From Nannocystis pusilla (lineage in GTDB: Bacteria; Myxococcota_A; Polyangia; Nannocystales; Nannocystaceae): a stretch of DNA of 64,000 bases. The translations under genes were made by a program, and so were the position numbers. Below, one piece after another: positions 9,158 through 64,000 of the stretch. Location: the NCBI RefSeq assembly GCF_049337375.1, contig NZ_JBMPIV010000001.1. One strand, 5' to 3'. Position 1 is the first letter of the stretch; each line of letters begins with the position of its first letter. The notes under the pieces were generated by a model, which was not told where the DNA came from, did not search any database, and was given only the letters and a program-made list of their open reading frames with translations.

Positions 9158-9167
9158 CAGGGCCGGT

Positions 9168-44879: not shown

Positions 44880-47831
<2,952 letters not shown>

Positions 47832-47832
47832 A

Positions 47833-47913
47833 GTTGTCCTGAAAGACAGGCCGGTTCGGACATGCCCGGACGGGCATGCTGTATACGACATGCCCGCAAG
47901 GACATGTCCTTGA
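47833..47913. repeat. 14-bp-period repeat (about 5 units) between the SNF2 helicase and the FG-GAP gene
   Basis: gacaggccggttcg / gacatgcccggacg / ggcatgctgtatac / gacatgcccgcaag / gacatgtccttgag. Confidence 0.85.
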
Positions 47914-47915
47914 GG

Positions 47916-49265: not shown

Positions 49266-49364
49266 GGTGGCCTTTCAGCGAGTGAGTGCCTCGGGGCTCG
49301 AGGTTCCGTTCGCCGATCTTCGCGCCTTCGCTGCGGCGGTGATCGAGGTAGCCGCGCGCGTCAC

Positions 49365-49745
49365 GCATGTCCCTTCGGACAGAGTCTCTGCTACCCCGTG
49401 CCGAAGTCTCGCCGCTCCAGAAGACCGCCGCCCCCGAGCGGTGAGATGTCTAAAGGGACAGGTTCGCGGGCCGAGGAACATGTGCGGAAGGGTCGCGGCG
49501 CGGGGGTCGAGCGATGAGGTGTCTAAAGGGACAGGTTCGCGGGCTGAGGCATATGTGCGGAGGGTCGAGTCGCGGGCGTTCGCGCGGTGAGATGTCTACA
49601 TGGACAGGTTCTCGGGCCGACGCACATGTACGGAAGGGTCGCGTCGCAGGCGGTCGAGCGATGAGATGTTTTTAAAAGGGACGGGTTATCGGGCCGAGGC
49701 AGATGCCGCGGGAGAGCGAACGGACAGGTCGTAAAGGACAGGTCT
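49365..49745. repeat. Higher-order tandem array: about 4.5 units of about 73 bp, each built from 14-bp subunits of the dispersed family
   Basis: The units start near 49436, 49509, 49582 and 49656 (cgagcgRTGAGRTGTCTAAAGGGACAGGTTCGCGGGCYGAGG.ACATGTGCGGAAGGGTCGCG...). There is a degenerate copy at 49365-49435. Confidence 0.85.
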
Positions 49746-49774
49746 GCCGAGACCGCGGGCGCCGAGCGACGCGC

Positions 49775-50974
49775 TCAGGAGCGGCACAGCGCGGATACCC
49801 GCGCGGCCAGGGCGGAGGCGGGCCAGCGGGCGAGGAATGCGGCGGCTTCGCGGCGGGCGCGGTCGTGTTCGCCGAGACGGCAGCGGGCCTCGATCGCGGC
49901 GGCGGCGGTCTCCTGGGCGAACACGCCGGCGGGGAAGCGCCGCTGGTGGCGGGCGACCAGCTCGAGGGTGGTGCGGTCGTCGGCGGCGAGCAACGCGGCG
50001 CGGATCGATTCGACGAGGTCGAGCTCCGCGGCCAGCGAGGGCTCCTCGCCGCGAGAGCGGCGCGCGGGCGCGGGGGGAGCGGGCGGGGCGGAGGCGGGCG
50101 GGGCCGGGGTGACGGCGGCCGCGAGCGCGACCGGCTGCGATCCCGGCTGCGACTGCACGGGCGCGGGCTCGTGGGCCGGGGCGACGACCGACGGCGGCGG
50201 CTCGGGCGGTGAAGGGCGGCCGAACGCCAGCACGGCGAAGAGCCCGGCGCCGGCGACCGAGAGGCCGACGACCGGGCTGCCGCCGGCGATCGCGGCCGGG
50301 GTTGCGATATGACTCATCGACCATGTCTTTGCGAGCATGTCCGAGACGACAGCCGGATCGCGCGCGGCGGCCAGGCGCCACGGCGGCGGCCCGGGCGGAC
50401 CGACCGCGACCAGCGCGGCGAGCACGTGGGCGCCCCGGCGCGGCCGGACCCGGCGATCGCGGGCGTCGAGGCGGCGGACCATGCGGTCGAGCTCGCGCCG
50501 GGCGGCGCGCAGGCGCGAGTAGACGGTGTTGAGGTTGACGCCGAGCTCAGCGGCGATCTCGGGGGCCTGCCACTGCTCGAGCTCGGTCATGACGAAGACG
50601 ACGGCCTGATCGCGGTCGAGGCCGTCGAGGAAGCCCTGGAGGATCGCGGCCGCCTCGGCCTGCTCGACGGGGGCCGCGACGGCGGGGGCGAGGACCTCGG
50701 CCTCGCTCAGCGCGCAGCGGCGCGGCTCCTCGCGCGCGGCGCTGCGCCGGTAACGGCTGGCGACGCGCCGCGCGATCTCGAACAACCAGGTGCGCAGCGC
50801 GGCCCGACCGGCGAACTCGGGCAGGCGGCGGTAGACGACCAGGAAGGTGTCCTGGACGGCGTCGTCGACCCGCGCCGGCTCGACGCCGAGGTGCCGGATG
50901 GTGCGCCAGACGAAGCCGTAGTTCGCGCGGTAGACGGCGGCGAAGTCGGGGAGGGCTTCCTGGGGGAGCGGCAC
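49775..50974 (-). CDS. ECF (sigma-70 group IV) sigma factor in one frame with a C-terminal TM plus anti-sigma-like domain. This is either a fusion or two genes with an unrecognised boundary.
   Basis: Sigma region 2 (FAAVYRANYGFVWRTIRHLG...DAVQDTFLVVYRRL) and region 4 (LGVNLNTVYSRLRAARREL). These are followed by a TM helix (AAIAGGSPVVGLSVAGAGLFAVLAFG) and an Ala-rich periplasmic part. A 14-bp repeat sits at the junction (50306-50350). Confidence 0.65.
   Translation of the reverse strand: MPLPQEALPDFAAVYRANYGFVWRTIRHLGVEPARVDDAVQDTFLVVYRRLPEFAGRAALRTWLFEIARRVASRYRRSAAREEPRRCALSEAEVLAPAVAAPVEQAEAAAILQGFLDGLDRDQAVVFVMTELEQWQAPEIAAELGVNLNTVYSRLRAARRELDRMVRRLDARDRRVRPRRGAHVLAALVAVGPPGPPPWRLAAARDPAVVSDMLAKTWSMSHIATPAAIAGGSPVVGLSVAGAGLFAVLAFGRPSPPEPPPSVVAPAHEPAPVQSQPGSQPVALAAAVTPAPPASAPPAPPAPARRSRGEEPSLAAELDLVESIRAALLAADDRTTLELVARHQRRFPAGVFAQETAAAAIEARCRLGEHDRARREAAAFLARWPASALAARVSALCRS
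50306..50350. repeat. Three 14-bp units (atatgactcatcgacc atgtctttgcgagc atgtccgagacgac) in frame at the sigma / anti-sigma junction
   Basis: Read directly from the sequence. Confidence 0.7.
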
Positions 50975-50995
50975 GATCGGGTCTGTCTCCGCGGG

Positions 50996-52570
50996 TCAGC
51001 GATTCCGTGGCCCGAATTGCAGGTCGAGGCCGAAAGTGGTGCGCAGGCCCGCGCGGCCGCCGCGGTACACCTCTTCAGCGCCGACGGTGAAGATCGGGCG
51101 GTTGACGGCCACGAGTCCCTCGACGGCCAGCCACAGGCCGAGCGGGCCGGCGACCCGCCAGCGCAGCGCGGGGCCGAGGAAGAAGCTGGCCCACGGGGCC
51201 CATCGCGGGTTCGGGACGGTGACGTCGCGGGCGACGCCGTGGAGCGCACCGACCTCGAGGCCGGCGCACAGGAGGACGGCGAGCGCCGGGCGCGGGTGCA
51301 GGGTCGGACAGAGCCGCACGACCCCGCCGAGGCGGTCGAAGCGGCCGCCGGGGCGCTCGCTGTCGCCTGGGAGGATCCGGCCGGGCGCGCCCACGAGGCC
51401 GGCCTCGAGGCGCAGGCGCGGCAAGGTGACGCCGCCGAACACGCCGACGAGGCCCCCGACGCCGGGGAGGACGCCGACGTCGAGGCCGCCCTCGAGGCGG
51501 AGGTGGCCGAGCACGCGCGGCGGTGCGGCCGGCCGGGGCGTTCGCGCGGCGGAGAACTCGGCTGTCTCTTCGGACATGTCCTCGGGGGCGAGCGGGCGCG
51601 ACGGCCCGGCGGGCGGTCGCGGGGGCGCGGGCGAGGTGAGCCGGCCTGCGGGTGAGGAGGTCGGGTCTGGCCGGAAGGACAGGTCGGGAGCGGCGGGGAT
51701 CGAGGGGGCGCGGGCCGGGTCGGACGCGAGGGGGTCGGGCGGCAGGAGCGGCGGGACCGGCCTCGTGGGCGACTCGGGTGGAGTGGGGGATGTCCGCGAG
51801 GACAGGTCGGTGGGCGAGGCCGGATCGGACGCGGAGGTCGTGGATGGCCGCGGGGCCAGGTCGGTGGGCGGGGCCGTGCCGGGCGGAGAGGAGGTCGTGG
51901 ATGTCCGCGGGGACAGGTCGGTGGACGGGTTGCCGGGCGGGGAGGTCGTGGATGTCCGCGGGGACAGGTCAAAGGGGCCCGGCGACGGGATCTTGGCTGT
52001 CCCGGAGGACAGGTCGGGCGGCAGGGCCGGGGGCGCGGGCGGGGCGACGGCGACCGCGGGCAGACCGCGGGCGACGCCCAGGGGGTCGAGGTGGATGGCG
52101 ATCAGGAGGGCGGCGGCGCGCGCGAGGATCGGGCAGCTCTCGGCGCGGACGGTGCGGCGGTAGGCGCTGCCCCGCCCACGCAGCACGAGCCGCAGCTCCC
52201 ACGTCGCGGCGGCGCGCGTGACGAGCCCGCGGGCAACGGCGCGACCTGCCGCGTCGTCGCCGGTCGGCTGACGCAGCAGGCCGGCGACCATGTGCAGGAC
52301 GGCGTCGCCGTCGGGGCACTCGCGCGGAGCCTGCCAGGTCAGGTCGACCGGCGGCGCGGCGACCGACGGCGCGGCGGACGAGAGGCGAGCGAACACCAGC
52401 GCGGCGAGGGCGAGCAAGCGAGAGTCCTGGCCCCGGTGATCGTGTCCGGGCAGGCGGGGGGCGTCAACTGTCGGCTGGCGTGCGACCGCGTGGACCGGCG
52501 TGCGGGCGGGGCAGGGCGACAGGTCGCGCGGGCGCGGCCGGGGCGAGACCGGCCGGACCCTGCGATGCAC
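50996..52570 (-). CDS. Hypothetical secreted protein: N-terminal domain, Pro/Ser/Thr-rich 17-18-aa tandem repeats, and a C-terminal region with beta-barrel-like alternating hydrophobicity
   Basis: Repeats of DLSPRTSTTSPPG(N/T)PST and a C-terminal ...GLRTTFGLDLQF... The start is uncertain. It lies 22 nt upstream of the sigma gene. Confidence 0.45.
   Translation of the reverse strand: MHRRVRPVSPRPRPRDLSPCPARTPVHAVARQPTVDAPRLPGHDHRGQDSRLLALAALVFARLSSAAPSVAAPPVDLTWQAPRECPDGDAVLHMVAGLLRQPTGDDAAGRAVARGLVTRAAATWELRLVLRGRGSAYRRTVRAESCPILARAAALLIAIHLDPLGVARGLPAVAVAPPAPPALPPDLSSGTAKIPSPGPFDLSPRTSTTSPPGNPSTDLSPRTSTTSSPPGTAPPTDLAPRPSTTSASDPASPTDLSSRTSPTPPESPTRPVPPLLPPDPLASDPARAPSIPAAPDLSFRPDPTSSPAGRLTSPAPPRPPAGPSRPLAPEDMSEETAEFSAARTPRPAAPPRVLGHLRLEGGLDVGVLPGVGGLVGVFGGVTLPRLRLEAGLVGAPGRILPGDSERPGGRFDRLGGVVRLCPTLHPRPALAVLLCAGLEVGALHGVARDVTVPNPRWAPWASFFLGPALRWRVAGPLGLWLAVEGLVAVNRPIFTVGAEEVYRGGRAGLRTTFGLDLQFGPRNR
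51570..52015. repeat. Coding DNA tandem repeats (about 51-54-bp units) composed of GGACAGGTC / GGATGTCC subunits related to the 14-bp family
   Basis: For example, gaggtcgtggatgtccgcggggacaggtcggtggacgggttgccgggcggg repeated 4-5 times. Confidence 0.75.
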
Positions 52571-52615
52571 GGCCGCGTGGACATCGTCGCCGGGGATTGA
52601 ACGCCGGGATGATCG

Positions 52616-52735
52616 GGTCTTCAGGACAGCCCGATGGCGAGGGCCGGCGGGCGCTGCGGCGCACTGTCCTATCGGACATGTCCTTTGATAAAGGTCATGC
52701 AGGACATGTCGAATAGAGCATGTCCGAACAGACCG
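52616..52735. repeat. 14-bp-period repeat cluster (about 7 units) between the Pro/Ser/Thr repeat protein gene and the ABC SBP gene
   Basis: gcactgtcctatcg gacatgtcctttga taaaggtcatgcag gacatgtcgaatag agcatgtccgaaca. Confidence 0.85.
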
Positions 52736-52739
52736 GTCG

Positions 52740-53741
52740 CTACTTCGCCGGCTTGCGGCCGATCTCGAGGTTGTAAGCGGCGGTGGGTTCGACGGCGCCG
52801 GGCTTCAGGAGGCCGAGGTCGACGAGCTGATCGGCGAGCGTCTTCCAGCGGGCGGGGTCGATCGCGCCGATCGTGCCGCCCTCGGGGGCCGCCAGCGGCT
52901 TGAGGGCGGCGGCGCCCTTGGCCAGGATCTCGGGGCTGAGCTCGGTGTTGCGGGCGCGGATCTCGGCGTTGGCGGCGCTCGGGTCGCGCAGGTACTGCTC
53001 CCACCCGCGCAGCGTCGCGGCGATGACGCGAGCGACCAGCTCGGGGCGGCTCGCCAGCAGCGACTCGGAGGTGACGAGAACGCTGGCATAGGGGTTGAAG
53101 CCGAGGTCGGCGACGAGGACGCAGCGGACCTTGGCGCCCTGCGACTCGGCGATGATCGGCTCGCTGAAGACGTAGGCCTGCTGGACGGCCTTGGGGTCGA
53201 GCAGGAACGGGGCGACGCTGCCGCTGTAGGGGACGACCTGGACCGCCTCGGGCCAGCGGTACTCGGCGCGCAGGAAGCTGGCGAACGGCTCGCGCACGCT
53301 CAGCTGCACGCTGCCCGCCTGGAGGTCCTTGAGGTCGGTGATGCCCGAGGCCTCGTGGACCATCATGCAGCGCGGGCTCTTCTGCAGGCCGGGGACGAGC
53401 GCGACCACCGGGGCGCCCTGGGCCCGCGCGAGCAGGATCTCGCTGGCGTCGGCGACGCCGAAATCGACCCGACCTGCGGCCACCTGCGGCAGGACCGGCG
53501 CGTCAGGCCGCCCCGGGACGAGCTCGACGTCGAGGCCCTCTTCCTTGTAGTAGCCGTGGACGAGGGCGGCGAAGTAGCCGCCGTGCTCGACCTCGGGGAA
53601 CCAGTTGAGGGCGATCCGCACCTGCTGCGAGTCCTGCTGGCGGCCGCAGGTGACGAGCAGCAAGCCGAGACAGGCGACGAGCAGGCGGACGAGGGCGCCG
53701 AACCGCGGGCGCGGCGGGACCGGTCGGGGCGGAGCGCGCAT
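52740..53741 (-). CDS. ABC transporter substrate-binding protein, NMT1/THI5-like (NitT/TauT family)
   Basis: ATG 53741 (MRAPPRP...LVACLGLLLVTCG) gives a signal and lipobox. It has an SsuA/NMT1-like fold. Confidence 0.75.
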   Translation of the reverse strand: MRAPPRPVPPRPRFGALVRLLVACLGLLLVTCGRQQDSQQVRIALNWFPEVEHGGYFAALVHGYYKEEGLDVELVPGRPDAPVLPQVAAGRVDFGVADASEILLARAQGAPVVALVPGLQKSPRCMMVHEASGITDLKDLQAGSVQLSVREPFASFLRAEYRWPEAVQVVPYSGSVAPFLLDPKAVQQAYVFSEPIIAESQGAKVRCVLVADLGFNPYASVLVTSESLLASRPELVARVIAATLRGWEQYLRDPSAANAEIRARNTELSPEILAKGAAALKPLAAPEGGTIGAIDPARWKTLADQLVDLGLLKPGAVEPTAAYNLEIGRKPAK

Positions 53742-53820
53742 GCCGGAAGCGTACACCCGAGCGCCACGGACGCACCAGCGGCCTCGACCGCGTCGCGGGG
53801 CCGATCTCGGGGTATGTACC

Positions 53821-53864
53821 CGAGGACATGATGAAAAGAGCATGTCCTCGGGGACATGTGGCGG
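53821..53864. repeat. 14-bp-period repeat (3 units) upstream of the SBP gene, at the left edge of the AKR-MFS-HxlR insert
   Basis: cgaggacatgatgaaaagagcatgtcctcggggacatgtggcgg. Confidence 0.8.
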
Positions 53865-54029
53865 GCGGCGACCGGAGGCGGGCAGCGCGGGGCAGAAAGC
53901 TCGCGGATCGCGGGTTCGCGCGGCGAAGTCGAAGACAGCCTCTCGTGGCCCGCGGCGGTGCGCTTCGCCGCCGGTGAGCGCGCCCTGACGGAGCCCGGCA
54001 TGCAGGCTCCGCCCGCCGAGCGAGACGGG

Positions 54030-55079
54030 TCAGGCGACGGGGATCGGCGGCGGGACGATGCTGTCGGGCTGGCCGCCGGCGATCCGCGGGCGGCTGCTCT
54101 CGACCTGCTGGTGCGGGGTGCCGAGGGCGATCGCGCTGGTGGCGTCGAGGCGGGCGAGCTGAGCCGGCGCGAGCTCGAGGGTGAGCGCGGCGAGGGCGGC
54201 GTCGAGGTGTTGGCGGGTGCGCGGGCCGAGGATGGGGATCCGCGCAGTGGTGGAGCGATCGGCGTGGGCCAGCGACCAGGCGAGGGCGACCTGGATCGGG
54301 GCCACGCCGGCCTCGGCGGCGACTGCGACGACGGCGTCGAGGATGGCGGTCTCGCGCGCGGTCTTCTCGGTGTGGACGAGCATGCCGAGGCCGGTGAGGC
54401 GGCCCTCGTCGCCGGTGCGGTACTTGCCGGTGAGGAAGCCGCCGCCGAGCGGCGACCACAGGGCCGCGCCGAGCCCCAGCGCCTCTGCCATCGGCAGCAG
54501 CTCGCGCTCCCCGGTGCGCTCGACCAGGCTGTGCTCGATCTGCACGCCCGCGAGCGGGGTCCAGCCGCGCAGCTCCGCGATCGCGTCGCCCCGCGCGACC
54601 CGCCAGGCGGGGAAGTTCGACAGGCCTCCGTAGAGGACTTTGCCGGCCCGCGCGAGGTCGTCGAGGCCGCGCACGATCTCGTCGATCGGGGTCAGGCCGT
54701 CGGGGAAGTGGACCCAATACAGCTCGATGCGGTCCGTCTTGAGCCGGCGCAGGCTGGCCTCGAGCGCGGCGATCATGGTCTTGCGGCTGTTGCCGGTGGC
54801 GTGCAGGCCACCTCCGACGCCGAGGGTGTACTTGCTGGCGACGACGAAGCGGTCGCGCTCGGCCGCGAGGAACTCGCCGAGCAGCTGCTCCGACTGGCCG
54901 ACCTGGTAGGTGTCGGCGGTGTCGATGAAGTTGCCGCCCGCCTCGGCGTAGGCGTCGAAGATCCGCCGCGCCTCGGCGGGCTCGCTGCCGTGGCCCCAAC
55001 CAGTGCCGAAGTTGCCGGTGCCGAGCGCGAGCTCGGAGACGCGTAAGCCTGTGCGACGACCAAATGTCCTGTACCGCAT
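54030..55079 (-). CDS. Aldo/keto reductase
   Basis: AKR fold motifs (LALGTGNFG, IDTADTY, ELYWVH). Confidence 0.85.
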   Translation of the reverse strand: MRYRTFGRRTGLRVSELALGTGNFGTGWGHGSEPAEARRIFDAYAEAGGNFIDTADTYQVGQSEQLLGEFLAAERDRFVVASKYTLGVGGGLHATGNSRKTMIAALEASLRRLKTDRIELYWVHFPDGLTPIDEIVRGLDDLARAGKVLYGGLSNFPAWRVARGDAIAELRGWTPLAGVQIEHSLVERTGERELLPMAEALGLGAALWSPLGGGFLTGKYRTGDEGRLTGLGMLVHTEKTARETAILDAVVAVAAEAGVAPIQVALAWSLAHADRSTTARIPILGPRTRQHLDAALAALTLELAPAQLARLDATSAIALGTPHQQVESSRPRIAGGQPDSIVPPPIPVA

Positions 55080-55205
55080 CGTGTGCTCCTGATGTCGGTT
55101 TTAGATTATGGTCGTCATATGGAATCGGCAAGAGGATGGCGTGTGAGTTCGGTTGAGTCGGTGCGGGCGTATTCGCGCGGCGGGTCTTGCGAGGATTCAA
55201 TCAAA

Positions 55206-55222
55206 CGTTCAATGATTGAACG
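55206..55222. promoter_or_regulatory. Perfect 8-1-8 operator palindrome CGTTCAATgATTGAACG overlapping the MFS start codon, in the AKR/MFS divergent region
   Basis: Read directly from the sequence. TTCAAT direct repeats flank it, and an SD-like GAGGA lies 15 nt upstream of ATG 55212. Confidence 0.6.
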
Positions 55223-56588
55223 CATGGAGATGCGCCTTTCCCCATTGGTCGTGGCCAGCCTGGCCGTGTTCGCGGTGTTCCTCGACACGACGGTGCTGTT
55301 CGTGGCGTTCCCGTCGATCGCGGCGACGTTCCCGGCGGTGCCCACGGCCGAGCTGTCGTGGGTGCTGAACGCGTACACGATCGTGTTCGCGGCCGCGCTG
55401 GTGCCGTTCGGGCGGCTCGCCGATCGCTGGGGCCATCGGGCGACGTTCCTGGCCGGGTCGATCGCCTTCACTCTGGCGTCGCTGCTGTGCGCGGCGGCGC
55501 CGACTCCGGGGCTGCTGGTGGCCGCGCGCGTGCTGCAGGCGGCCGGCGGCGCGGCGCTGGTTCCTTCGTCGCTCGCGCTGGTGATGCGGGCGACGCCGCG
55601 CGAGAGGCTGCCGGTGGCGCTGGCGGTGTGGGGCGCGACGGGAGCGGTGGCGGGGGCGGTCGGGCCGACGCTCGGCGCGGCGCTGATCGAGGCGTGCGGC
55701 TGGCGCTGGGTGTTCGCCATCAACCTTCCGGTCGGGCTGGTGACGGTGCTGCTCGGGCGAAGGCGCCTGACCGAGTCGCGCGACCCGGACAGCGTGCTGC
55801 CGGCGCCGCTCGGGGTGGTGCTGCTGGTGCTCGCGGCGGTGCTGATCACTCTGGCGCTGGTGCTCGGGGAGGCGTGGGGCTGGACGTCGCAGCGGACCGC
55901 GGCGACGCTGGTGGCCGGGCTGGCGACCCTGGCGGCGTTCGTGATCCATCAGGCGCGCACGCGGGCGCCGACGATCGATCTGTCGCTGTTCGCGGGGAGC
56001 AACTTCCGCTGGGCCAACGCGGCGACGCTGACGTTCGGCGCGGCGTTCACGGCGATGTTCCTGGCCAGCGTCCTGTTCCTCACCGCCGTGTGGGGCTGGT
56101 CGATCCTCGCGGCGGGCTTCGGCGTCGCGCCCGGGCCGCTGCTGGTGGCGGTGCTGTCGCCGCGTTTCGGGCGGCTGGCGACGCGGATCGGCCAGCGGCC
56201 GCTCTTGATCGCCGGAGGGCTGTCGTTCGCGCTCGGGGGGCTGTGGCGCCTGGGGATGCTGTCGGCCGAGGTCGACTACGCGGTCGACTACCTACCGTCG
56301 ATGCTGCTGACCGGGACAGGGGTGGCGCTGTGCCTGCCGCAGCTGTCGAGCGTGGTCGGCCAGGCGTTGCCGGCGAACCGCCTCGGGGTCGGCGGGGCGG
56401 TCCACCAGGCGCTGCGCCAGTTCGCGGGGACGCTCGGGGTGGCGCTGGCGATCGGGCTGACTGCCGGGGCGAGCGGGCCGGCCGACGCGCTGGCGCGGTT
56501 CGACCGGGTGTGGTGGGTGATGATCGCCGGCGGGGTGGCGACCGCGCTGTGCTCGCTGCCCCTTCGGACAGGTCCGGCCCGGGCGTGA
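55212..56588 (+). CDS. MFS transporter, DHA2 (EmrB/QacA-like, 14-TM) drug:H+ antiporter family
   Basis: Start at ATG 55212 or 55224. It has 14 predicted TM helices and MFS motif A (GRLADRWGHR). Confidence 0.8.
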   Translation: MIERMEMRLSPLVVASLAVFAVFLDTTVLFVAFPSIAATFPAVPTAELSWVLNAYTIVFAAALVPFGRLADRWGHRATFLAGSIAFTLASLLCAAAPTPGLLVAARVLQAAGGAALVPSSLALVMRATPRERLPVALAVWGATGAVAGAVGPTLGAALIEACGWRWVFAINLPVGLVTVLLGRRRLTESRDPDSVLPAPLGVVLLVLAAVLITLALVLGEAWGWTSQRTAATLVAGLATLAAFVIHQARTRAPTIDLSLFAGSNFRWANAATLTFGAAFTAMFLASVLFLTAVWGWSILAAGFGVAPGPLLVAVLSPRFGRLATRIGQRPLLIAGGLSFALGGLWRLGMLSAEVDYAVDYLPSMLLTGTGVALCLPQLSSVVGQALPANRLGVGGAVHQALRQFAGTLGVALAIGLTAGASGPADALARFDRVWWVMIAGGVATALCSLPLRTGPARA

Positions 56589-56601
56589 TACAACGGGCCT
56601 C

Positions 56602-57057
56602 GTGCGGCGCAAGCGACTCGACCGGATGCAGTGCTCGATCGCCCGGGCGCTCGATGTCGTCGGCGACCCGTGGACGCTGCTGCTCGTGCGCGACGCGCTG
56701 CTCGGGGTGACCCGCTTCGAGGTGTTCCAGGCGCGGCTGCAGATCCCGCGGGCCACGTTGACGGCCCGCCTGGCGCACCTGGTCGACGCGGGAATTCTTG
56801 AGCGCAGGTCCTACCAGGATCACCCGCCGCGCGAGGAGTACGTGCCGACGGCGAAGGGCCGCGGGCTGCGGCCGGTGATCGTGACGCTGATGCAGTGGGG
56901 CGACGCGTTCGCGCGCGAGGACCCACCGCCGACGGTGCTCGAGGACGCCGCCACGGGGCTGCCGATCGAGCCGGTGCTGGTCGACCGTGTCAGCGGGGCG
57001 CCGCTCACGGCGCTGCGCGTGCGCGCGGTCGGACCGGGGGTGCCGCGGCGGGGTTGA
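56602..57057 (+). CDS. HxlR family transcriptional regulator (second copy in the window)
   Basis: GTG start. The conserved core reads CSIARALDVVGDPWTLLLVRDALLGVTRF. Confidence 0.8.
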   Translation: MRRKRLDRMQCSIARALDVVGDPWTLLLVRDALLGVTRFEVFQARLQIPRATLTARLAHLVDAGILERRSYQDHPPREEYVPTAKGRGLRPVIVTLMQWGDAFAREDPPPTVLEDAATGLPIEPVLVDRVSGAPLTALRVRAVGPGVPRRG

Positions 57058-57128
57058 CGACATGTTCTTTGGGGCATGCTCTCAAGGGCATGGTCGAATG
57101 GAAATGTCGGAAAAGACATGTTATTTTG
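57057..57128. repeat. 14-bp-period repeat (5 units) at the right edge of the AKR-MFS-HxlR insert
   Basis: gacatgttctttgg / ggcatgctctcaag / ggcatggtcgaatg / gaaatgtcggaaaa / gacatgttattttg. Confidence 0.85.
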
Positions 57129-57182
57129 TGCAGGCTGTCGACGCGCCGCCGAAGCGCGATTCGGGCCGGTGACGCGGGCCGA

Positions 57183-57971
57183 TCAGTGGACGGCGAGCTC
57201 GCGGCCGCGCCAGCGGCGGAGGGCGAGCTCGCCGAGCAGGGCGACGAGGCCGAACAGCAGCAGGCCGAGCAGGGTGGCGGTGAAGATCGCGGCGAACAGG
57301 TAGGCGGTCTGCAGGCGGCCGGAGGTCTGGAGGATCAGGGCGCCGAGGCCGAGCTCGTCGGCGCCGAAGCCGGCGAAGAACTCGCCGACGATGGCGCCGA
57401 TGACCGCGAGGCCGCCGCTGATCTTGGCGCCGGCGACGAAGTAGGGCAGCGAGCCGGGCAGGCGCAGCTTGAGCAGCAGCTGCAGGCGCGAGGCGTCGCT
57501 CATGGCGAACAGTTCGAGCAGCTGCGGGTCGACGCGGACGAGGCCGGTGGTGCCGTTGGTGATGATCGGGAAGACGCTGAGGATCGCGGCGGTGAGGACG
57601 ACGCTCTGCAGGCCGGTGCCGAACCACACGACGATCAGCGGGGCGACGGCGACGATCGGGACGGTCTGCAGGAAGATCGCGTACGGGTAGAGGCTGCGCG
57701 CCGCCGTCTGCGACTGCGAGAACAGGACGGCCACGAGGCCGCCGACGACGAGGCTGGCCCCGAGGCCGCCGAGCGCGCCGACAGCGGTCAGCAGCGCGGC
57801 CTGGGCGAGCTGGCCGACGTTCGCCGCGGCCTCGCGCGCGACCTCGGCCGGGGTCGGCACGAGGTAGGCCGGCAGCGCCAGGACGCTGCAGGCCAGCTGC
57901 CACAGGCCGAGGAGGGCGAGGAAGACGAGGAGCGGCGGGAGCGCGGCTCGAGCGGCCGATGCGAGGGACAT
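57183..57971 (-). CDS. ABC transporter permease (NitT/TauT / SsuC-like)
   Basis: Six TM helices and an EAA-like loop. Its family is consistent with the SBP at 52740-53741. Confidence 0.8.
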   Translation of the reverse strand: MSLASAARAALPPLLVFLALLGLWQLACSVLALPAYLVPTPAEVAREAAANVGQLAQAALLTAVGALGGLGASLVVGGLVAVLFSQSQTAARSLYPYAIFLQTVPIVAVAPLIVVWFGTGLQSVVLTAAILSVFPIITNGTTGLVRVDPQLLELFAMSDASRLQLLLKLRLPGSLPYFVAGAKISGGLAVIGAIVGEFFAGFGADELGLGALILQTSGRLQTAYLFAAIFTATLLGLLLFGLVALLGELALRRWRGRELAVH

Positions 57972-58080
57972 GCGGGGAGGCAGAGAGGAGGAGGGGGCGA
58001 GCGGCGAGGCGCCGGCGACAGGCGAGGGGGCGGAGGAAGGCGGGGGGAAGGAGGCCGGGCTGGCAGTGGCGGGGCGGGAT

Positions 58081-58160
58081 GGCTGTCCCGAGGGACATGC
58101 GGAAATGGACAGGGCGGAGAGGTCAGGTCCGAACGGGCATGTCCGAAGGGTCAGGTGGGG
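58081..58160. repeat. 14-bp-period repeat between the ABC ATPase and permease genes, overlapping the ATPase 3' end
   Basis: gacatgcggaaatg / gacagggcggagag / gtcaggtccgaacg / ggcatgtccgaagg. Confidence 0.8.
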
Positions 58161-58929
58161 CGGCGGCGCGCAGGCGGGCGCGGACGTCGGCGGCGATCGC
58201 CGCGAACTCGGGGCTGCCGATCAGGGCGGCGCGGCGCGGGCGCGGCAGGGCGATCGGGATGTCGGCGACCACGCGGCCGGGGCGGCCGGAGAGCACGACG
58301 ACGCGGTCGCCGAGCAGGACCGCCTCGGCGACGCTGTGGGTGACGGCCAGGGCGGTGAAGCGGTCGCGCTCCCACAGGCGCAGCAGCTCGTCGTTGAGGC
58401 GCTCGCGCGTGAGCTCGTCGAGGGCGCCGAACGGCTCGTCGAGCAGGAGCAGCTCGGGCCGGGTGACGAGGGCGCGGGCGAGCGAGGCCCGCATCTTCAT
58501 GCCGCCCGAGAGCGCGGTCGGGGGAGCGGCGGCGAACTCCGACAGGCCGACGAGCGCGAGCGCGGCGTCGGCGGCGGTGTTCTGCTCGGCGATCGGGGCG
58601 CGCGCGAGCTCGAGCGGGAGCCGGACGTTGGCGTGCAGGCTGCGCCACGGGAGCAGGGTCGGGTCCTGAAACACGAAGGCGATCGCGCGGCGCGCCCGGG
58701 CCCGCTCGGGGGCCTCGCCGGCGACGGTGATGGTGCCCGCGCTGGCGGGCGCGAGGCCGGCAGCGACGCGCAGGAAGGTCGACTTGCCGCAGCCCGAGGG
58801 GCCGATGAGGGCGAGCAGCTCGCCGCGGCGGACGACGAGGTCGAGGCCGCTCAGGGCCTGCACGCCGCCCGCGAACTGCACGCCGAGGCCGCGGGCCTCG
58901 ATGTGCGGGGCTGGGACCGGCTCGGTCAC
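58123..58929 (-). CDS. ABC transporter ATP-binding protein (NitT/TauT family)
   Basis: GTG start at 58929. It has Walker A GPSGCGKST, the signature LSGGMKMRASLARAL and Walker B LLLLDEP. The last about 11 codons are encoded by the repeat. Confidence 0.8.
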   Translation of the reverse strand: MTEPVPAPHIEARGLGVQFAGGVQALSGLDLVVRRGELLALIGPSGCGKSTFLRVAAGLAPASAGTITVAGEAPERARARRAIAFVFQDPTLLPWRSLHANVRLPLELARAPIAEQNTAADAALALVGLSEFAAAPPTALSGGMKMRASLARALVTRPELLLLDEPFGALDELTRERLNDELLRLWERDRFTALAVTHSVAEAVLLGDRVVVLSGRPGRVVADIPIALPRPRRAALIGSPEFAAIAADVRARLRAAAPPDPSDMPVRT

Positions 58930-59051
58930 GCGGCGGACGCTAACACAGCGACCGGCGCGACGCACAGGCCGGCGCTCTTCCGCGTAATGACGGCGATCGG
59001 CGACACGGCGCGACGGACGGGCGAGGCTCGTGGCGCCCCCCGGCCGCCGCG

Positions 59052-59837
59052 TCAGGCCTTGCGGGGGCGCGAGCGGCGGGCGCGGGCGGGCTTGGCCGGG
59101 GGCGCAGGGGGCTCGGGCTCGGGTTCGTCTGCCTCTTCGGGCATGTCCTCGAGGTCCGGTGCTTCCGAACCTGTCGCTTCAGACATGTCCTCGGAGACCT
59201 CCTCGGCCTCGGCCTCGGCTTCGGCCTCGGGCGGGTCGGACGGGGCCGCCTCGAGGCCGCTGTTGCGGAGGGTGCGGGGCGGCAGCAGCTCGGGCTCGCT
59301 GACGACCTTCTTGGCCAGGAAGATGGCGGCGTCGATCTGGGAGAAGCTGCGGGCGCGGTAGAACTGGAGCGCGCGCTTGTTGTTGGCGGCGACCTCGAGG
59401 ACGAGGTGCGTGCAGCCGCGCACGCGGGCGAGGTGCTCGAGCTGCTCGATGACGAAGCTGCCGATCCCGCGGCCCTGGAAGTCGGGGTGGATGGCGATCT
59501 CCTCGACGAACAGCGGGCGCATGTCCCGGCTCTCGAAGTAGCGCTCGTTGATCCAATTGTCGGAGCCGATGACCTCGTAGGCGCACTCCGCGTAGCCGAC
59601 GATCACCGGGGCGTCGCCCTCGTGGATCTCGAACAGCAGCTGCTCGATGCCCTCCTCCTCGTAGATCTCGAGGAAGCGGGTCTTGGTGCGGGGGCGCTGG
59701 TACTCGACGGTCTCGCGGTTGACCGAGCGGAACACGCGCTTGAGGAACTCCCACACCTTGTTGAGGTCGCGGCGGTGGATCCGGCGGACACGGATGGTGG
59801 GCTCCGTGACGGCGGGCGCGGGCTTGCGGGAGGCCAC
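59052..59837 (-). CDS. GNAT family N-acetyltransferase with a C-terminal acidic/Pro-rich tail
   Basis: GNAT core (HPDFQGRGIGSFVIEQLEHLARVRGCTHLVLEV). The tail (EAEAEAEAEEVSEDMSEATGSEAPDLEDMPEE...) is partly encoded by 14-bp repeat units at 59134-59197. Confidence 0.7.
   Translation of the reverse strand: MASRKPAPAVTEPTIRVRRIHRRDLNKVWEFLKRVFRSVNRETVEYQRPRTKTRFLEIYEEEGIEQLLFEIHEGDAPVIVGYAECAYEVIGSDNWINERYFESRDMRPLFVEEIAIHPDFQGRGIGSFVIEQLEHLARVRGCTHLVLEVAANNKRALQFYRARSFSQIDAAIFLAKKVVSEPELLPPRTLRNSGLEAAPSDPPEAEAEAEAEEVSEDMSEATGSEAPDLEDMPEEADEPEPEPPAPPAKPARARRSRPRKA
59134..59197. repeat. 14-bp-family units inside the 3' coding tail of the GNAT gene
   Basis: ctcttcgggcatgtcctcgaggtccggtgcttccgaacctgtcgcttcagacatgtcctcggag. 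Confidence 0.7.
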
Positions 59838-59912
59838 GCCCGAAGTCTAGCACCGCCGGGGGGGCGCTCGTCCGCCTTGCGTGTGTGCGCACGTGCGTGG
59901 CATGCTCGGCCG

Positions 59913-61733
59913 ATGCGTCTCCGCGCCGCTGCGTCCGCCGCCGAGCCTGCGCGCCGGCGTGGCCGACGTCGCAGCGCGGGCCTGCGCCGGATCGGGCTCG
60001 GGTGCGTGGCCGTCGCGCTCGCTTGCGGACCGGGCGAGCAGAAGGCGCAGAAGGTCGAGGCGAACCCGAACATGCCCGACCGCGTGCAGGCGCCTGCGCC
60101 CGCGCCGCGCCGGCCGGAGGTCCACGACTGCCCCGAGGCGCTCCGCGAGCCCGAGCAGGTCGACCGCGTGATCGGCTCGGCTTGCAAGTCGGTGACGGTC
60201 CACCCGGGCTATCGCATCGAGAACGGGTCGCTGACGATCGAGGCGGGCGTGACCCTGCAGTTCATGCCCGACGCCGAACTGGCGGTCGGCTTCGAGCGCC
60301 CGGCGACGCTGCACGTGCGCGGCACGCCCGAGTCGCCGGTCCGCTTCACGGCCGCGGGCGAGCAGGCCAAGCCCGGGGCGTGGAAGGGGATCGCGCTGTA
60401 CGACCACGCCGACGGCTCGGAGATCGCCGGGCTCGTGCTCGAGTTCGCCGGCACCGACCTGCGCGGGGCGATCTACGTGCAGGCGACCGACGTGAAGATC
60501 GACGGCTCGACGGTGCGCGACAGCCAGAACGTGGCGGTCCACGTGACGTCGAAGGGCCACGTCAGCAGCTTCAAGGGCAACCGGCTCGAGCGCGTGAGCT
60601 CGCCGGCGCTGCTGCTGCCGGCCCGCTCGGCCGGGTCGGTGACGCCCGACAACACGTTTCCGCCCGACTCGGTGATCCACGTGCTCGGCGGGACGATCCG
60701 CGAGCGCGCCCGCTGGGACGTGCCGAAGGTGCCGTTCGTGATCGGCGGGGTGATCGAGATCGAGGGCCCCGACGACAAGCACGAGGCGATGCTCGAGCTG
60801 GCCCCGGGGACAGTCCTGAAGTTCGACGACGACGCGTACTTCACGGTCGGCTACGACCACCCGGCGGCGCTCATCGCCGAAGCGGCGGGCAAGGAGCCGA
60901 TCGTGCTGACGTCGGCGACCCGCCAGACGTCGCACGCGTGGCGCGGGGTCAACCTCTACCGCTCGGCCACCGCGAGCTTCAGCAACGTGGTGTTCGAGTA
61001 CGGCGGCCAGCGCTCCGACCGCGGGGTGGTCTACGCCAACAACGAGGCGCGCCTCAGCGCGAAGGGCTGCACGTTCCGCGACAACGGCGGCGGCGTGACG
61101 CTCCAGGGCGCGAACGTCCGCCTCGGCGACTTCCGCGACAACACGTTCGAGCGCTCGCACCCGGCCTTCGACGTGAGCCCGCAGCTGTTCGGGATGATCC
61201 CGCCCGAGAACAAGCTCGACGCCGCGACGACGGTCCAGGTCGAGGGCGGCGAGGTCAGCAAGGACGCGGTGTGGAACGACTTCGGGGTGCCGATCGAGGT
61301 CAAGCGCCCGGTCTCGGTCGACAACCAGGCGACGCTGACGATCCGCGCCGGCGCCAAGCTGCGCGTCCACGACGGCTTCTCGCTCGGGGTCGGCGAGTTC
61401 GGCGGCGGCTCGCTGCGCGTCGAGGGCACGGCCGAGCGCCCGGTGCAGATCTTCGGGACCACCGACCGCCGCGGCACGTGGGACGCGATCCGCCTGTACG
61501 AGAAGGCCCGCGGCAACCTGTTCGAGCACGTGCAGCTGCGCAACGCCGGCGGCGAGGGGGCCATCAACGTCGCCATGGGCGTCGACGCGGTCGTCCGCGA
61601 CGTGTCCTGCGTGCGCTGCTTCAGCCCGACGCTGACGTGGGCCTGCGGCTCGCGCGTGACGTCCGAGCGCGTCGCAGGCGGGGCCGAGACGCCGGCGGCG
61701 ACGCTGCCGCCGTTCGGCTGCGACCCGGCTTGA
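59913..61733 (+). CDS. Right-handed parallel beta-helix (pectin-lyase-fold) repeat lipoprotein
   Basis: ATG 59913 and lipobox VALACG. It has repeated beta-helix rungs (e.g. VHV.S.G.VS...N......G) over about 550 aa. Confidence 0.6.
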   Translation: MRLRAAASAAEPARRRGRRRSAGLRRIGLGCVAVALACGPGEQKAQKVEANPNMPDRVQAPAPAPRRPEVHDCPEALREPEQVDRVIGSACKSVTVHPGYRIENGSLTIEAGVTLQFMPDAELAVGFERPATLHVRGTPESPVRFTAAGEQAKPGAWKGIALYDHADGSEIAGLVLEFAGTDLRGAIYVQATDVKIDGSTVRDSQNVAVHVTSKGHVSSFKGNRLERVSSPALLLPARSAGSVTPDNTFPPDSVIHVLGGTIRERARWDVPKVPFVIGGVIEIEGPDDKHEAMLELAPGTVLKFDDDAYFTVGYDHPAALIAEAAGKEPIVLTSATRQTSHAWRGVNLYRSATASFSNVVFEYGGQRSDRGVVYANNEARLSAKGCTFRDNGGGVTLQGANVRLGDFRDNTFERSHPAFDVSPQLFGMIPPENKLDAATTVQVEGGEVSKDAVWNDFGVPIEVKRPVSVDNQATLTIRAGAKLRVHDGFSLGVGEFGGGSLRVEGTAERPVQIFGTTDRRGTWDAIRLYEKARGNLFEHVQLRNAGGEGAINVAMGVDAVVRDVSCVRCFSPTLTWACGSRVTSERVAGGAETPAATLPPFGCDPA

Positions 61734-61839
61734 GGCCGCGCGCCGGGACTGGCCCGCTCTCGACGGGGCGGGCCATCGGGTCGCGGTCGCTATTCTGATG
61801 TGCTCGGAAAGTTCGCCGCGAGCTTCCAGGGGGCATGGC

Positions 61840-61925
61840 GGCAGTAAAATAAGGGGTAATTTTTGTCCCCTAAGCACCTCGATCGGCATGCAAAGGTAAG
61901 TATATGGTCCTTTGTTTTTGCCGGG
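61840..61925. other. Local AT-rich island (about 85 bp) with a small hairpin (AGGGG-taatttttgt-CCCCT) in a convergent intergenic region. Candidate sRNA, promoter remnant or insertion scar.
   Basis: gcagtaaaataaggggtaatttttgtcccctaagcacctcgatcggcatgcaaaggtaagtatatggtcctttgtttttgcc stands out against the GC-rich background. Confidence 0.3.
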
Positions 61926-62003
61926 AGGTCCGCGGTGACGATGGGCGCCGGGCCCGTTCGTCGGCAGGATGAGGCCCGGCTCGACGGCGGACGCGGCATG
62001 GCT

Positions 62004-62155
62004 CGCTGGACATGTCATCAAGAACATGCTCGATAGAGCATGCTCTCATGAGCATGTTCATCGAGACATGGCCGGGAGGGCAGGTGTGTCCGGGGCCCGG
62101 CGCGCCTCACGAGCATGTTCTTCGAGTCATGGCCGTGAGGGCATGTGCGTCCGGG
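62004..62155. repeat. Long 14-bp-period repeat cluster (about 10 units) including an internal duplication of about 48 bp, overlapping the 3' end of the TPR/kinase-associated gene
   Basis: gacatgtcatcaa gaacatgctcgata gagcatgctctcat gagcatgttcatcg agacatggccggga ... gagcatgttcttcg agtcatggccgtga gggcatgtgcgtcc. Confidence 0.85.
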
Positions 62156-64000
62156 GTCCGGCGCGGGTCAGCAGGCGCTCGCTGGCGGCCAGCTGGCGGG
62201 CGAAGCTGGCGCCGGCGCTGCGGTAGAACGCGAGCGCGGCGCCGAGGTGCGGGCGGGCGGCGGCGACCGACGGCGGCGTGGCGCTCAGCAACGCCTCGGC
62301 GAGGGTGCGGTGGGCGCGAGCGAGGCGCGGGGCCCAGTGCGGGTCGTCGGCGGCGAGGACGGTGAGCTCGGCGACGGCGGCGGCCAGCGGGACGCGGGCC
62401 TCGAGCGGCCGGCCGCGGACGAGCAAGTTCTGGCCGAGGACGAGGCGCAGCTCGGCGATCTCCTCGCTCGACCAGGTGGTGTCCGGCATGCGCGCGAGGG
62501 TGGCCTGGAGGTGCTCGATGGCGGTGTCGTCGTCGACCGAGCCGGCGAGGCCGCGATAGCCGGCGAGCAGGGTCGCCTCGGGCCCGAACAGGCGCGTGCC
62601 GGACAGCTCCGACAGCTCGGCGGCGGCGCGGAAGACCGAGGCGGCGTCGTCGTCGTCGCCGATCTCGGTGGCGGCGCGGCCGAGGTGGAACAGGCACCGC
62701 GTGCGACGCACGAGGTCGTCGGGCAAGAACCGCTCGAGGGCGACGCAGCCGGCCTGGAGGATCGACCAGGCCTCACCCGGCTCGGCGAGCTGGGCGGCGG
62801 TGATCCGCGCCTCGATGGTGGCGGGGTGAACGACGCCGAGCTCGGCGTCGAAGATCTCGAGGGCGCGCGCGAGGAGGTCGTCGCGCGCGGCGCCCGGCTC
62901 GGTGACGGAGGCGAGGTTGAGGAGGGTGTAGCCGACGTCGCGGTGGCCGGCTGACAGGGCGCCCTGGCGCACGCTCAGGGCCTCGGTGAAGTAGCGCCGC
63001 GCCTCGGCCGAGTTGCGCTGGGCGAGGTTGGCGACGCCGAGGTTGTGCAGGACGAGGCCGCGCAGGGCCTCGGGAGCGGCGCCGCGAGAGGCGAGGGCGA
63101 GGGCGAGGGGCTCGTCGGCGAGGGCGCGCGCGACCATCTCGGGCCGGCGACTGGCGGCGACGATCCGCGAGGCCACGGCCTCGGCCGCGATCGCGTCGCC
63201 GCGCGACTCGATGCCGCTGCGCATGGCCCGGGTCAACCACTCGAGCTCCTGACCGGTCTCCTCGGAGGTGTTGAGCGAGAGCCGCCCGCGCAGCAGGGCG
63301 ACCTCGGCCCGCAGCGGGGCGTAGCCGATCTGCTCGGCGGCGGCCTCGATGTCGACGGCCTGATCGACGGCGTCGTGGATCCGCCCGAGCTTGGCCAGCG
63401 CCTCGACCCGCGCCATGTGATTGCGCAGGTCGGCGACGCGCTCGCCGAGCTCGGGGTCGTCGGGCGCCGGGGGTTCGGCCTTGAGGAAGGCGAGCTCGTG
63501 GCAGGCGGAGGGCGGCACGAGATCGCTGGCGGCGCCGAGCGCCCGCGGGGCCATGTCCATGTCGGCGATCGAGAGGGCCTTGACGGTCTCGTCGAAGGCG
63601 TCGCGCCGGCGATCGAGGCAGCGGCGCTGGCGATCGAGCAGGGCCTCGGTGTAGCGGCCCTGGTGCTCGGCGAGGCAGGTGTCGCGGTGGTTCTCGGCCC
63701 ACGAGGCGGCGAAGCGATCGAGCTTGTCGGCGACCTTGGGCCACAGCACGGCGGCGTAGTTGGGCGCCGCGTCGCGCAGAGCCGTGGCGACGGCGTTGCG
63801 CTGGGCCGGGCCCCAGACGCGGGCGATGTCGGCGTCGGCGTCGGCGCACGGGGACTCGGCGGCGGCCTCGGGCACGAAGGCGAGGCCGGCGGCGCCGGCG
63901 GTGAGGGCGAGCGCCAGAGCGGCGCCGACGAACCGCCAGGTCCGCCCGCGCGACGGGACGAGCGCGCCGAGCAGCGCCTCCATCGACGGGTAGCGGTCGC
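62127..64000 (-). CDS. Partial CDS (5' end beyond the window): TPR-repeat protein with an N-proximal TM segment, typical of the C-terminal region of myxobacterial Ser/Thr-kinase or anti-sigma-associated TPR proteins
   Basis: The frame stays open to the window edge. There is a TM helix (WRFVGAALALALTAGAAGLAF) followed by TPR-like repeats. Confidence 0.55.
   Translation of the reverse strand, partial: DRYPSMEALLGALVPSRGRTWRFVGAALALALTAGAAGLAFVPEAAAESPCADADADIARVWGPAQRNAVATALRDAAPNYAAVLWPKVADKLDRFAASWAENHRDTCLAEHQGRYTEALLDRQRRCLDRRRDAFDETVKALSIADMDMAPRALGAASDLVPPSACHELAFLKAEPPAPDDPELGERVADLRNHMARVEALAKLGRIHDAVDQAVDIEAAAEQIGYAPLRAEVALLRGRLSLNTSEETGQELEWLTRAMRSGIESRGDAIAAEAVASRIVAASRRPEMVARALADEPLALALASRGAAPEALRGLVLHNLGVANLAQRNSAEARRYFTEALSVRQGALSAGHRDVGYTLLNLASVTEPGAARDDLLARALEIFDAELGVVHPATIEARITAAQLAEPGEAWSILQAGCVALERFLPDDLVRRTRCLFHLGRAATEIGDDDDAASVFRAAAELSELSGTRLFGPEATLLAGYRGLAGSVDDDTAIEHLQATLARMPDTTWSSEEIAELRLVLGQNLLVRGRPLEARVPLAAAVAELTVLAADDPHWAPRLARAHRTLAEALLSATPPSVAAARPHLGAALAFYRSAGASFARQLAASERLLTRAGPRTHMPSRP

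Follow-up and report, generated by a model that had tools for sequence, protein, structure and literature searches.

The disruption of operons by horizontally acquired genes is a general phenomenon of operon evolution. Extragenic palindromes form families such as REP/BIME of Escherichia coli (including the malE-malF REP, which lies within an ABC operon), SMAG of Stenotrophomonas and the Correia elements of Neisseria. Both subjects arise at a NitT/TauT-type ABC transporter operon of Nannocystis pusilla, a soil myxobacterium of the family Nannocystaceae; the operon lies in a 64-kb stretch of DNA from contig NZ_JBMPIV010000001.1 (hereafter the window, to which all coordinates refer unless another contig is named). 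In this operon, the gene of the substrate-binding protein (SBP) is separated from the ATPase and permease genes by the genes of an aldo/keto reductase (AKR), an MFS efflux transporter and an HxlR/DUF24-type regulator, and the gene ends of the region carry arrays of short tandem palindromes. The HxlR/DUF24 family consists of thiol-switch regulators whose N-terminal sensing cysteine is conserved (PMC3351151).

The original prediction for this locus held that the repeats had mediated the insertion or recombination of a small detoxification module into a pre-existing operon. The analysis presented here makes it probable that an ancient composite insertion, which includes an Acidimicrobiia-like MFS-HxlR cassette, split a compact operon, that the transporter was kept, and that the arrays are not scars of the insertion.

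Organization of the locus and age of the insertion

Open reading frames (ORFs) and profile searches agree with the original prediction on the coordinates and families of all six genes, as well as on the separation of the SBP gene from the permease gene by the AKR, MFS and HxlR genes. The three transporter genes lie on the minus strand and comprise the ABC_tran ATPase of the NitT/TauT type (58123-58929; PF00005, 1.3e-31), which is the first gene of the ancestral operon, the BPD_transp_1 permease (57183-57971; PF00528, 4.3e-21) and the NMT1/THI5-like SBP (52740-53741; PF09084, 4e-38), which is its last. The AKR gene (54030-55079; PF00248, 2.5e-64) has the same minus-strand orientation as the ABC genes. 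The acquired cassette lies on the plus strand and begins with the gene of the DHA2/EmrB-type MFS efflux transporter (55227-56588; PF07690, 4e-43), which passes the TIGR00711 subfamily cut-off with 233.4 bits against 230.2; its second gene encodes the HxlR/DUF24-type winged-helix regulator (56602-57057; PF01638, 4.4e-19, residues 19-106). The order ATPase-permease-SBP, taken as canonical in the original prediction, is that of relatives carrying the three genes contiguously.

A scan of the genome collection with the SBP gave 80 loci, onto which all proteins of the window were then mapped. The split order ATPase-permease-[HxlR, MFS, AKR]-SBP is found in eight lineages, namely the window, six Nannocystis genomes in which the order is identical (RBIL2, N. 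exedens DSM 71, N. punicea, N. bainbridge, N. pusilla Na p29 and N. radixulma; L001-L006) and a metagenome contig (L091) whose SBP is 79% identical to that of the window. Compact operons are present in L085, a metagenome contig of 79 kb, and in L086, both with gaps of 39 and 10 bp, and in L007, a contig of a metagenome-assembled genome (MAG), where the gaps are 44 and 10 bp. Their identities to the window for SBP, permease and ATPase are 74, 82 and 73% in L085, and 68, 78 and 73% in L007. In about 37 distant loci, whose hosts include Planctomycetota, Latescibacterota, Gemmatimonadota and Sandaracinaceae, the three genes are likewise contiguous. Because L085, L007 and these distant loci are contiguous, the compact operon is read as the ancestral state; the search of relatives for an uninterrupted operon, which had been proposed as a check, thus bears out the claim that a module entered a pre-existing ATPase-permease-SBP operon.

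The insert measures about 3.4 kb and is sited at the permease-SBP junction, which spans about 10 bp in the compact operons. The distribution of the two orders places a single insertion on the branch leading to the split Nannocystis lineages, between the 74 and 79% levels of SBP identity, and by the same comparison it is old, having occurred before the sampled Nannocystis species diverged. Judging from the best outgroup matches of all three proteins, which share contiguous operons, the SBP is the cognate partner of the ATPase and permease.

The ratio of nonsynonymous to synonymous substitution rates (dN/dS) ranges from 0.10 to 0.48 across the six genes of the locus (0.17-0.48 for the ATPase, 0.14-0.38 for the permease and 0.26-0.41 for the SBP), and dS is alike in the insert and its flanks. 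These values indicate purifying selection on all six genes, and because of them the whole arrangement can be regarded as inherited and kept functional.

The left flank of the window (a beta-helix gene followed by a GNAT gene) is kept in L085 and in L086, with 67% identity for the beta-helix protein and 90% for GNAT. In N. punicea, N. bainbridge and N. radixulma, an extra 2-4 kb absent from the window lies between the GNAT and ATPase genes. SBP homologues with no ABC ATPase or permease gene within 10 kb were recorded in L008, L009 (a Nannocystis sp. MAG), L018, L019 and about 35 further loci. In L087, a Myxococcales MAG whose SBP is 60% identical, an ORF of 718 aa (7707-9863 of that contig) occupies the same permease-SBP junction and gave no match in a Pfam search; from this contig, the junction may be a recurrent insertion point.

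Properties of the transporter components

The ATPase, the SsuC/NtrB/TauC-type permease and the cognate SBP of the NMT1/SsuA fold place the system among the NitT/TauT importers (TC 3.A.1.17). The best NCBIfam matches of the ATPase are ntrCD (nitrate), SsuB (sulfonate) and TauB (taurine), and the permease is SaoP/SsuC/NtrB-like. All these scores lie under the equivalog cut-offs, so that no equivalog-level substrate assignment of the transporter is obtained from NCBIfam. The SBP carries the lipoprotein signal LLLVTC, is 100% identical to an NCBI protein of N. pusilla, and has as its nearest solved structures 4nmy and the pyrimidine-binding protein ThiY (3ix1). An Rfam scan of the window, which has a GC content of about 72-74%, recovered only a tRNA outside the locus, and no thiamine pyrophosphate (TPP) or other riboswitch.

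Origin of the inserted genes

The best homologues of the MFS protein outside Nannocystis are 72-76% identical, and all the named ones belong to Actinomycetota, mostly to Acidimicrobiia (Acidimicrobiales MAGs, Ilumatobacter, Actinomarinicola tropica and Nitriliruptoraceae). In three such contexts (Acidimicrobiia-type contigs L081-L084), the MFS gene is directly followed by an HxlR gene, and the HxlR proteins of L081-L084 are 62-68% identical to that of the window. A midpoint-rooted neighbour-joining tree lacking a myxobacterial outgroup places the Nannocystis MFS proteins in one clade nested inside actinobacterial sequences.

The cassettes of the two phyla also have a cis-element in common. The palindrome TTCAATGATTGAA (55208-55220), a putative HxlR operator, lies 7 nt upstream of the MFS ATG and is the sole match in the window at up to two mismatches, where 0.04 would be expected. 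It is a 13-nt palindrome of the form TTCAAT(G/C)ATTGAA, always located just upstream of the MFS start; L001-L006, L081 and L084 contain exactly one exact match each, the other 82 loci contain none, and L082 carries the palindrome with one mismatch. Because of the affinity of MFS and HxlR, the shared palindrome and the nested clade, horizontal transfer of the cassette as a unit is favoured; these features point to joint movement of operator, pump and regulator from Actinomycetota to Nannocystis.

The AKR displays a different affinity, its best matches outside Nannocystis (70-73% identical) being spread over mixed taxa that include Chondromyces, Binatia and Burkholderiales. The neighbourhoods of AKR homologues in Chondromyces and in a bioreactor metagenome contig contain unrelated genes and no linked MFS or HxlR gene. 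This pattern assigns to the AKR an origin separate from that of MFS-HxlR and makes the insert a composite, in a combination seen only in Nannocystis among the genomes sampled. The three genes of the small detoxification module proposed earlier (AKR, pump and regulator) are all present, but they form a composite and not one pre-formed unit.

Control regions of the insert and of the SBP gene

The single cysteine of the HxlR protein, C11, is part of the N-terminal motif MQCSIARAL. It is most likely that this regulator represses mfs-hxlR at the palindrome and that repression is released by electrophiles or oxidants, as would be expected of a thiol switch with its candidate operator at the start of the pump gene. 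The divergent control region between the AKR and MFS genes (55080-55226) contains no array; this divergent region, counted as 171 bp, is the only GC-poor stretch, with 64% GC. On the minus strand at about 55087-55135 it carries a sigma70-like element, TTGCCG-17 nt-TAATCT, together with the Shine-Dalgarno sequence AGGAG, in a block that is invariant in seven genomes and that is interpreted here as a putative AKR promoter. A strict consensus promoter scan called 0 promoters and so passed over the AKR candidate.

In the spacer between the AKR and SBP genes, the AKR-proximal part is hypervariable, with a length anywhere between about 34 and 400 nt. The SBP gene is immediately preceded by a conserved block of about 50 nt (53742-53790, minus strand; …CCGCTGGT…GCGCTC…T.TAC.CT…ATG), defined by columns that are invariant in seven lineages. 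The block includes a -10-like TACGCT at 53748-53753, which in its TAC(N)CT form lies 6 nt before the SBP start. The compact operons, with their 10-bp spacer, lack it. The conservation of the block suggests that it is probably the SBP gene's own promoter or 5' region, gained after the separation from the ATPase and permease genes, and that SBP is likely to be expressed separately from them.

A sigma-54 reading of the block was rejected on inspection, as the would-be -12 element varies between species. An inverted repeat with arms at 53727-53746 and 53995-54014 (20 nt, 90%) was attributed to chance; it is deleted in N. bainbridge and N. radixulma and differs in N. exedens DSM 71 and N. punicea. 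In N. pusilla Na p29, the AKR-SBP spacer (about 9600-9840 of L005) contains a strain-specific tandem expansion of a GC-rich unit of about 23 nt, GCGAGCCTGCGAGCCTCCGCCCC. The tblastn matches of ATPase and SBP are truncated at the same locus, perhaps because of frameshifts or assembly errors.

Structure and distribution of the tandem palindrome arrays

Arrays were called by a position-weight-matrix scan with the shuffled window as control, and their placement was read from a gene map made with a self-trained codon-bias gene caller. The array unit is a short palindrome, approximately AAGGACATGTCCTT, with the core GRCATGYC and a strict period of 14 bp. It takes the form GGAC(AT/AG)GTCC (10 nt) followed by a 4-nt spacer and is repeated head-to-tail in runs of 2-7 units; an asymmetric variant of the unit is GACAGGTC. 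The window contains 26 copies of the core, where shuffles give 5.5 ± 2.4, and core-to-core distances peak at 14, 28, 42 and 56 bp. The scan called 31 arrays in the window against 0-2 per shuffle.

Arrays are present at all four sites named in the original prediction. An array of 4 units, mostly of the asymmetric form GACAGGTC, extends across the ATPase stop (58091-58146), and its position is kept in L001-L006 and L091; in L085, a rudimentary version of 2-3 units was seen by eye at the ATPase stop and was not called by the scan. The array at the left edge of the insert (57056-57125; 5 units) occupies the convergent gap between the permease and HxlR stops, its first unit containing the HxlR stop codon. 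In other lineages its position is kept (2-5 units) and its sequence is not. At the right edge, an array of 3 units (53822-53863) lies between the AKR and SBP genes, and every one of the eight split lineages has it about 95 nt before the SBP ATG. The fourth array (52658-52741; 6 units) begins at the SBP stop codon. At this position the scan also called an array in L001, L002, L003, L005, L006 and L091, leaving L004 as the one split lineage without a call.

The placement of the arrays across the window is biased to gene ends. Of the 32 intergenic regions with a gene 3' end, 12 have an array; so do 5 of 7 convergent gaps, as against 0 of 7 divergent ones (Fisher p = 0.02). Twelve of the 16 intergenic arrays lie no more than 38 nt from a stop codon, and all seven of the strongest lie at a stop codon or within 38 nt of it. 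Arrays number 11-18 per 21 kb in L001-L006 and 13 in the 14.5 kb of L091, and almost all other loci have 0-1 weak matches. Among 91 loci, only the sister contig L085 carries a sparser variant of the arrays; the Acidimicrobiia-type contigs L081-L084 have none, except for one isolated unit inside a coding gene of L081. The arrays are a family of short palindromes in tandem that is abundant, specific to this lineage and located at gene 3' ends. The family appears to be undescribed; no Rfam family and no publication describing the arrays or the module was found, and a scan of viral contigs for a perfect double unit gave one unrelated match.

When positions 44000-63900 of the window are compared with the closest genomes, N. 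pusilla Na p29, RBIL2 and N. exedens DSM 71, the arrays are 84, 71 and 62% identical; third codon positions reach 96, 93 and 88%, and intergenic DNA outside the arrays 89, 78 and 70%. The arrays are, by this measure, the fastest-evolving DNA of the region, and the persistence of their position and motif implies turnover or regeneration.

The asymmetric variant is further distinguished by its polarity. The unit GACAGGTC occurs 12 times on the plus strand and its complement GACCTGTC once, regardless of gene orientation, in counts that are partly non-independent, as some copies lie inside tandem repeats; example sites are 16004-16059, 46158-46199, 49720-49747, 51784-51973 and 58091-58146. The plus strand of the whole window has a positive GC skew. 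The polarity of GACAGGTC seems to follow the DNA strand, perhaps the replication strand, and not transcription.

Array-like units were also observed inside coding sequence, at 59137-59206, 50303-50344 and 51556-51973 of the window and at 11827-11882 of L091. They belong to the acidic C-terminal tail of the GNAT gene, where they are kept in RBIL2, N. exedens DSM 71 and N. pusilla Na p29, to the C-terminal part of an ECF-sigma-like gene, and to 54-nt repeats of a downstream ORF of 474-524 aa that encode a peptide of the DLSPRTS type and vary in copy number between species. The latter two genes lie directly downstream of the SBP gene (49775-50974 and 50996-52570): the ORF is rich in Pro/Ser/Thr repeats and has no Pfam match, and the product of the other gene, 399 aa long, combines ECF-type sigma regions 2 and 4 with a long C-terminal extension. 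The pair is kept in all split lineages and is not found downstream of the SBP gene in L085. Longer tandem repeats built of 14-bp units are present at 49435-49705 (73 bp × 3.7 copies) and 62045-62165 (61 bp × 2), which suggests that the arrays were amplified in larger blocks.

Function of the arrays

Three readings of the arrays may be distinguished, namely an RNA terminator or stabiliser, a protein-binding array and a self-propagating slippage product. According to the first, the arrays are RNA-level elements that would act as bidirectional hairpin terminators, or as 3'-end stabilisers of the REP/BIME kind, and would partition the old operon; this is possible, though it falls short of being probable. 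It accords with arrays that abut stop codons, fill convergent gaps and persist in position across species despite the turnover of their sequence, and with the nested hairpins, of -21 to -56 kcal/mol, that are predicted for most of the arrays folded, with z from -5 to -7.6 at several sites. The left-edge array on the permease-sense strand, at only -12.3 kcal/mol (z -1.36), is not among these. The folding argument is weakened, however, by the finding that the real arrays have no folding advantage (mean z -0.3) over concatenations in which their units are permuted or drawn at random. Moreover, the predicted sense-strand folds of the asymmetric arrays after the ATPase gene are poor (-7 to -23 kcal/mol). 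The antisense strand folds better there, as it does at all four sites, a result consistent with GC skew rather than with selection at the RNA level. The U-tract of an intrinsic terminator was found after a hairpin twice in 52000-60000, at chance level (1.6 expected), and the AKR-SBP array is one of these only two terminator-like matches. The 12 to 1 polarity of the asymmetric variant along the DNA strand and the presence of some arrays within coding sequence are likewise not what an element acting in the transcript would predict.

A second proposal, offered tentatively and on balance unlikely to be correct, is that the GGAC(AT/AG)GTCC arrays are Nannocystis-specific, genome-wide boundary elements that would be recognised by a dedicated DNA- or RNA-binding factor and actively regenerated at gene 3' ends, including new gene boundaries. 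If true, it would explain both the persistence of position and motif amid fast turnover and the strand-bound asymmetric variant.

Alternative accounts of the split operon

The question of whether the arrays brought about the insertion can be separated from their function. As the original prediction stated, arrays bracket the insert, being present at both of its edges; they are not special to it, however, but occur throughout the window. Since arrays sit at many gene 3' ends, their presence at both edges is unremarkable, and they are found equally where nothing was inserted, after the ATPase gene and after the SBP gene. Beyond this co-location, nothing was found in favour of repeat-mediated insertion or recombination. 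The comparison of repeat orientation suggested earlier is void because the array units are palindromic, so that direct and inverted copies have no meaning.

In its most explicit form, this account would have pre-existing arrays at the operon junction and at the flanks of a mobile AKR-MFS-HxlR module recombine, leaving the edge arrays as joints. It has in its favour the arrays at both edges in all eight split lineages, the coincidence of split order and high array density in the same clade, and the arrays elsewhere in L085, by which the family may pre-date the insertion. It is nevertheless improbable. The uninterrupted junction of L085 and L007 is 10 bp long and free of arrays, the homologous cassettes of Acidimicrobiia have no arrays, and AKR and MFS-HxlR are unlinked outside Nannocystis. 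The two edge arrays share only a generic match of 23 nt at 74%, and with 10 other intergenic array sites in the window, co-location is to be expected. Furthermore, because the arrays change in sequence more quickly than the rest of the intergenic DNA, present-day arrays cannot preserve an ancient joint.

Other signs of a mobile element were sought with similar outcome. At the ends of the insert there are no terminal inverted or direct repeats and no target-site duplication, the best candidate being the same generic unit match, and the insert contains no transposase, integrase or recombinase gene, its ORFs being only AKR, MFS and HxlR. Of the marks of mobile elements (a recombinase gene, terminal repeats and atypical composition), the insert has none.

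It is very improbable that the split order is ancestral and that the compact operons of L085 and L007 arose by precise deletion of three genes, for although the close outgroup contigs number only two, the contiguous order with short gaps is the rule in the roughly 37 distant loci of several phyla, two separate deletions back to a 10-bp junction would be unparsimonious, and the MFS-HxlR cassette is actinobacterial in affinity and otherwise missing from the myxobacterial matches. Equally improbable is an SBP that is an orphan or serves a different transporter, so that no operon was ever split; about half of the distant SBP homologues do have no ABC genes within 10 kb, and that of L009 adjoins a beta-helix gene, but L085 and L007 hold the best ATPase (73%), permease (78-82%) and SBP (68-74%) matches side by side in one operon, the left flank of the window recurs in L085, and the best distant matches are likewise adjacent, as in L015.

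Several points weigh against an ancient composite insertion followed by occupation of the new gene ends by arrays. The insertion has no identifiable mechanism, a short duplication being undetectable given the 10-bp ancestral junction. Split order and array richness coincide in the same clade, so that presence and absence cannot formally exclude a causal role of the arrays. The AKR-SBP array keeps its distance to the SBP start and not to the AKR stop, a poor fit to a pure 3'-end element. The MFS tree was built by neighbour-joining with midpoint rooting and includes no myxobacterial outgroup. No sampled genome carries only AKR or only MFS-HxlR, which makes one event indistinguishable from two successive events. 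Finally, the comparison of GC and codon usage that had been suggested gave an insert not clearly different from its flanks. GC at third codon positions (GC3) is 0.94-0.96 in the insert against a window mean of 0.95 ± 0.03, and MFS and HxlR depart from typical synonymous codon usage by only about 1.4 standard deviations; with GC, GC3 and codon usage within about 1.4 standard deviations of the genes of the window, composition gives no independent signal of foreign origin.

Proposed course of events and significance

The ancient composite insertion that we favour may be outlined as follows. The ancestor possessed a compact NitT/TauT-type operon of ATPase, permease and NMT1/ThiY-like binding lipoprotein. 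In the common ancestor of the split Nannocystis lineages, about 3.4 kb was inserted into the permease-SBP junction of about 10 bp, one part being the operator-MFS-HxlR cassette, presumably acquired horizontally from Acidimicrobiia-like Actinomycetota, and the other part the divergently transcribed AKR with its own putative sigma70-like promoter. The one-cysteine HxlR/DUF24 protein is predicted to bind TTCAAT(G/C)ATTGAA at the pump start and to let go of the site once an electrophile or oxidant has modified its thiol. The transporter was not inactivated; the three ABC genes and the three inserted genes have co-diverged under purifying selection. SBP gained the upstream block, probably as its own promoter, which would permit its expression separately from ATPase and permease. 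The arrays, which populate gene 3' ends in this lineage, would have occupied the new gene boundaries after the rearrangement.

A split operon is an ordinary kind of genome change; what merits further study is the array family. The locus nonetheless offers a clean and datable case, useful for a textbook though not surprising, in which foreign genes were inserted into a conserved transporter operon and the operon survived; regulator, pump and operator appear to have moved together between phyla, from Actinomycetota to Myxococcota. The repeats that had been taken for insertion scars belong to an abundant family that marks gene ends in Nannocystis. If the density of the window holds, thousands of arrays would be present in a genome of about 12 Mb, and the family would matter for the annotation of transcription units, terminators and rearrangements in the natural-product-rich Nannocystis genomes of 11-13 Mb.

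Comparison with known systems

The transporter resembles described NitT/TauT importers (ThiXYZ with ThiY 3ix1, SsuABC and TauABC) in its three components, their Pfam families and its lipoprotein SBP, and in the contiguous ATPase-permease-SBP order of its relatives. It differs from them in that 3.4 kb of unrelated genes split SBP from permease, that no TPP riboswitch is present and that no equivalog cut-off is reached. As in operon disruption generally, a foreign cassette lies in an intergenic junction, and the separated gene was kept and gained an upstream element; the locus is unusual only in the cross-phylum conservation of the cis-operator and in the composite nature of the insert.

The regulator shares with the HxlR/DUF24 proteins YodB, HypR and HxlR (PMC3351151) the PF01638 winged helix and the N-terminal cysteine, as well as a palindromic site by the regulated gene and neighbours that encode an oxidoreductase and an efflux pump. 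Unlike in those systems, the regulator gene here lies downstream of the DHA2 pump gene, with which it is co-transcribed, the candidate operator lies at the pump start, and the cassette is common to Acidimicrobiia and Nannocystis.

The arrays are comparable to REP/BIME in being abundant, lineage-specific, mostly extragenic and capable of forming hairpins, in their bias to gene 3' ends and convergent gaps, and in their presence even between the genes of a transporter operon. The REP unit is an imperfect palindrome of 20-40 nt with a GTAG-like head, whereas the units of the arrays measure 10-14 nt, stand in strict 14-bp tandem in runs of 2-7, and have neither a GTAG-type head nor a long imperfect stem of their own. 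The arrays differ further from REP/BIME in possessing an asymmetric variant with a polarity along the DNA strand and in having some of their copies in coding regions.

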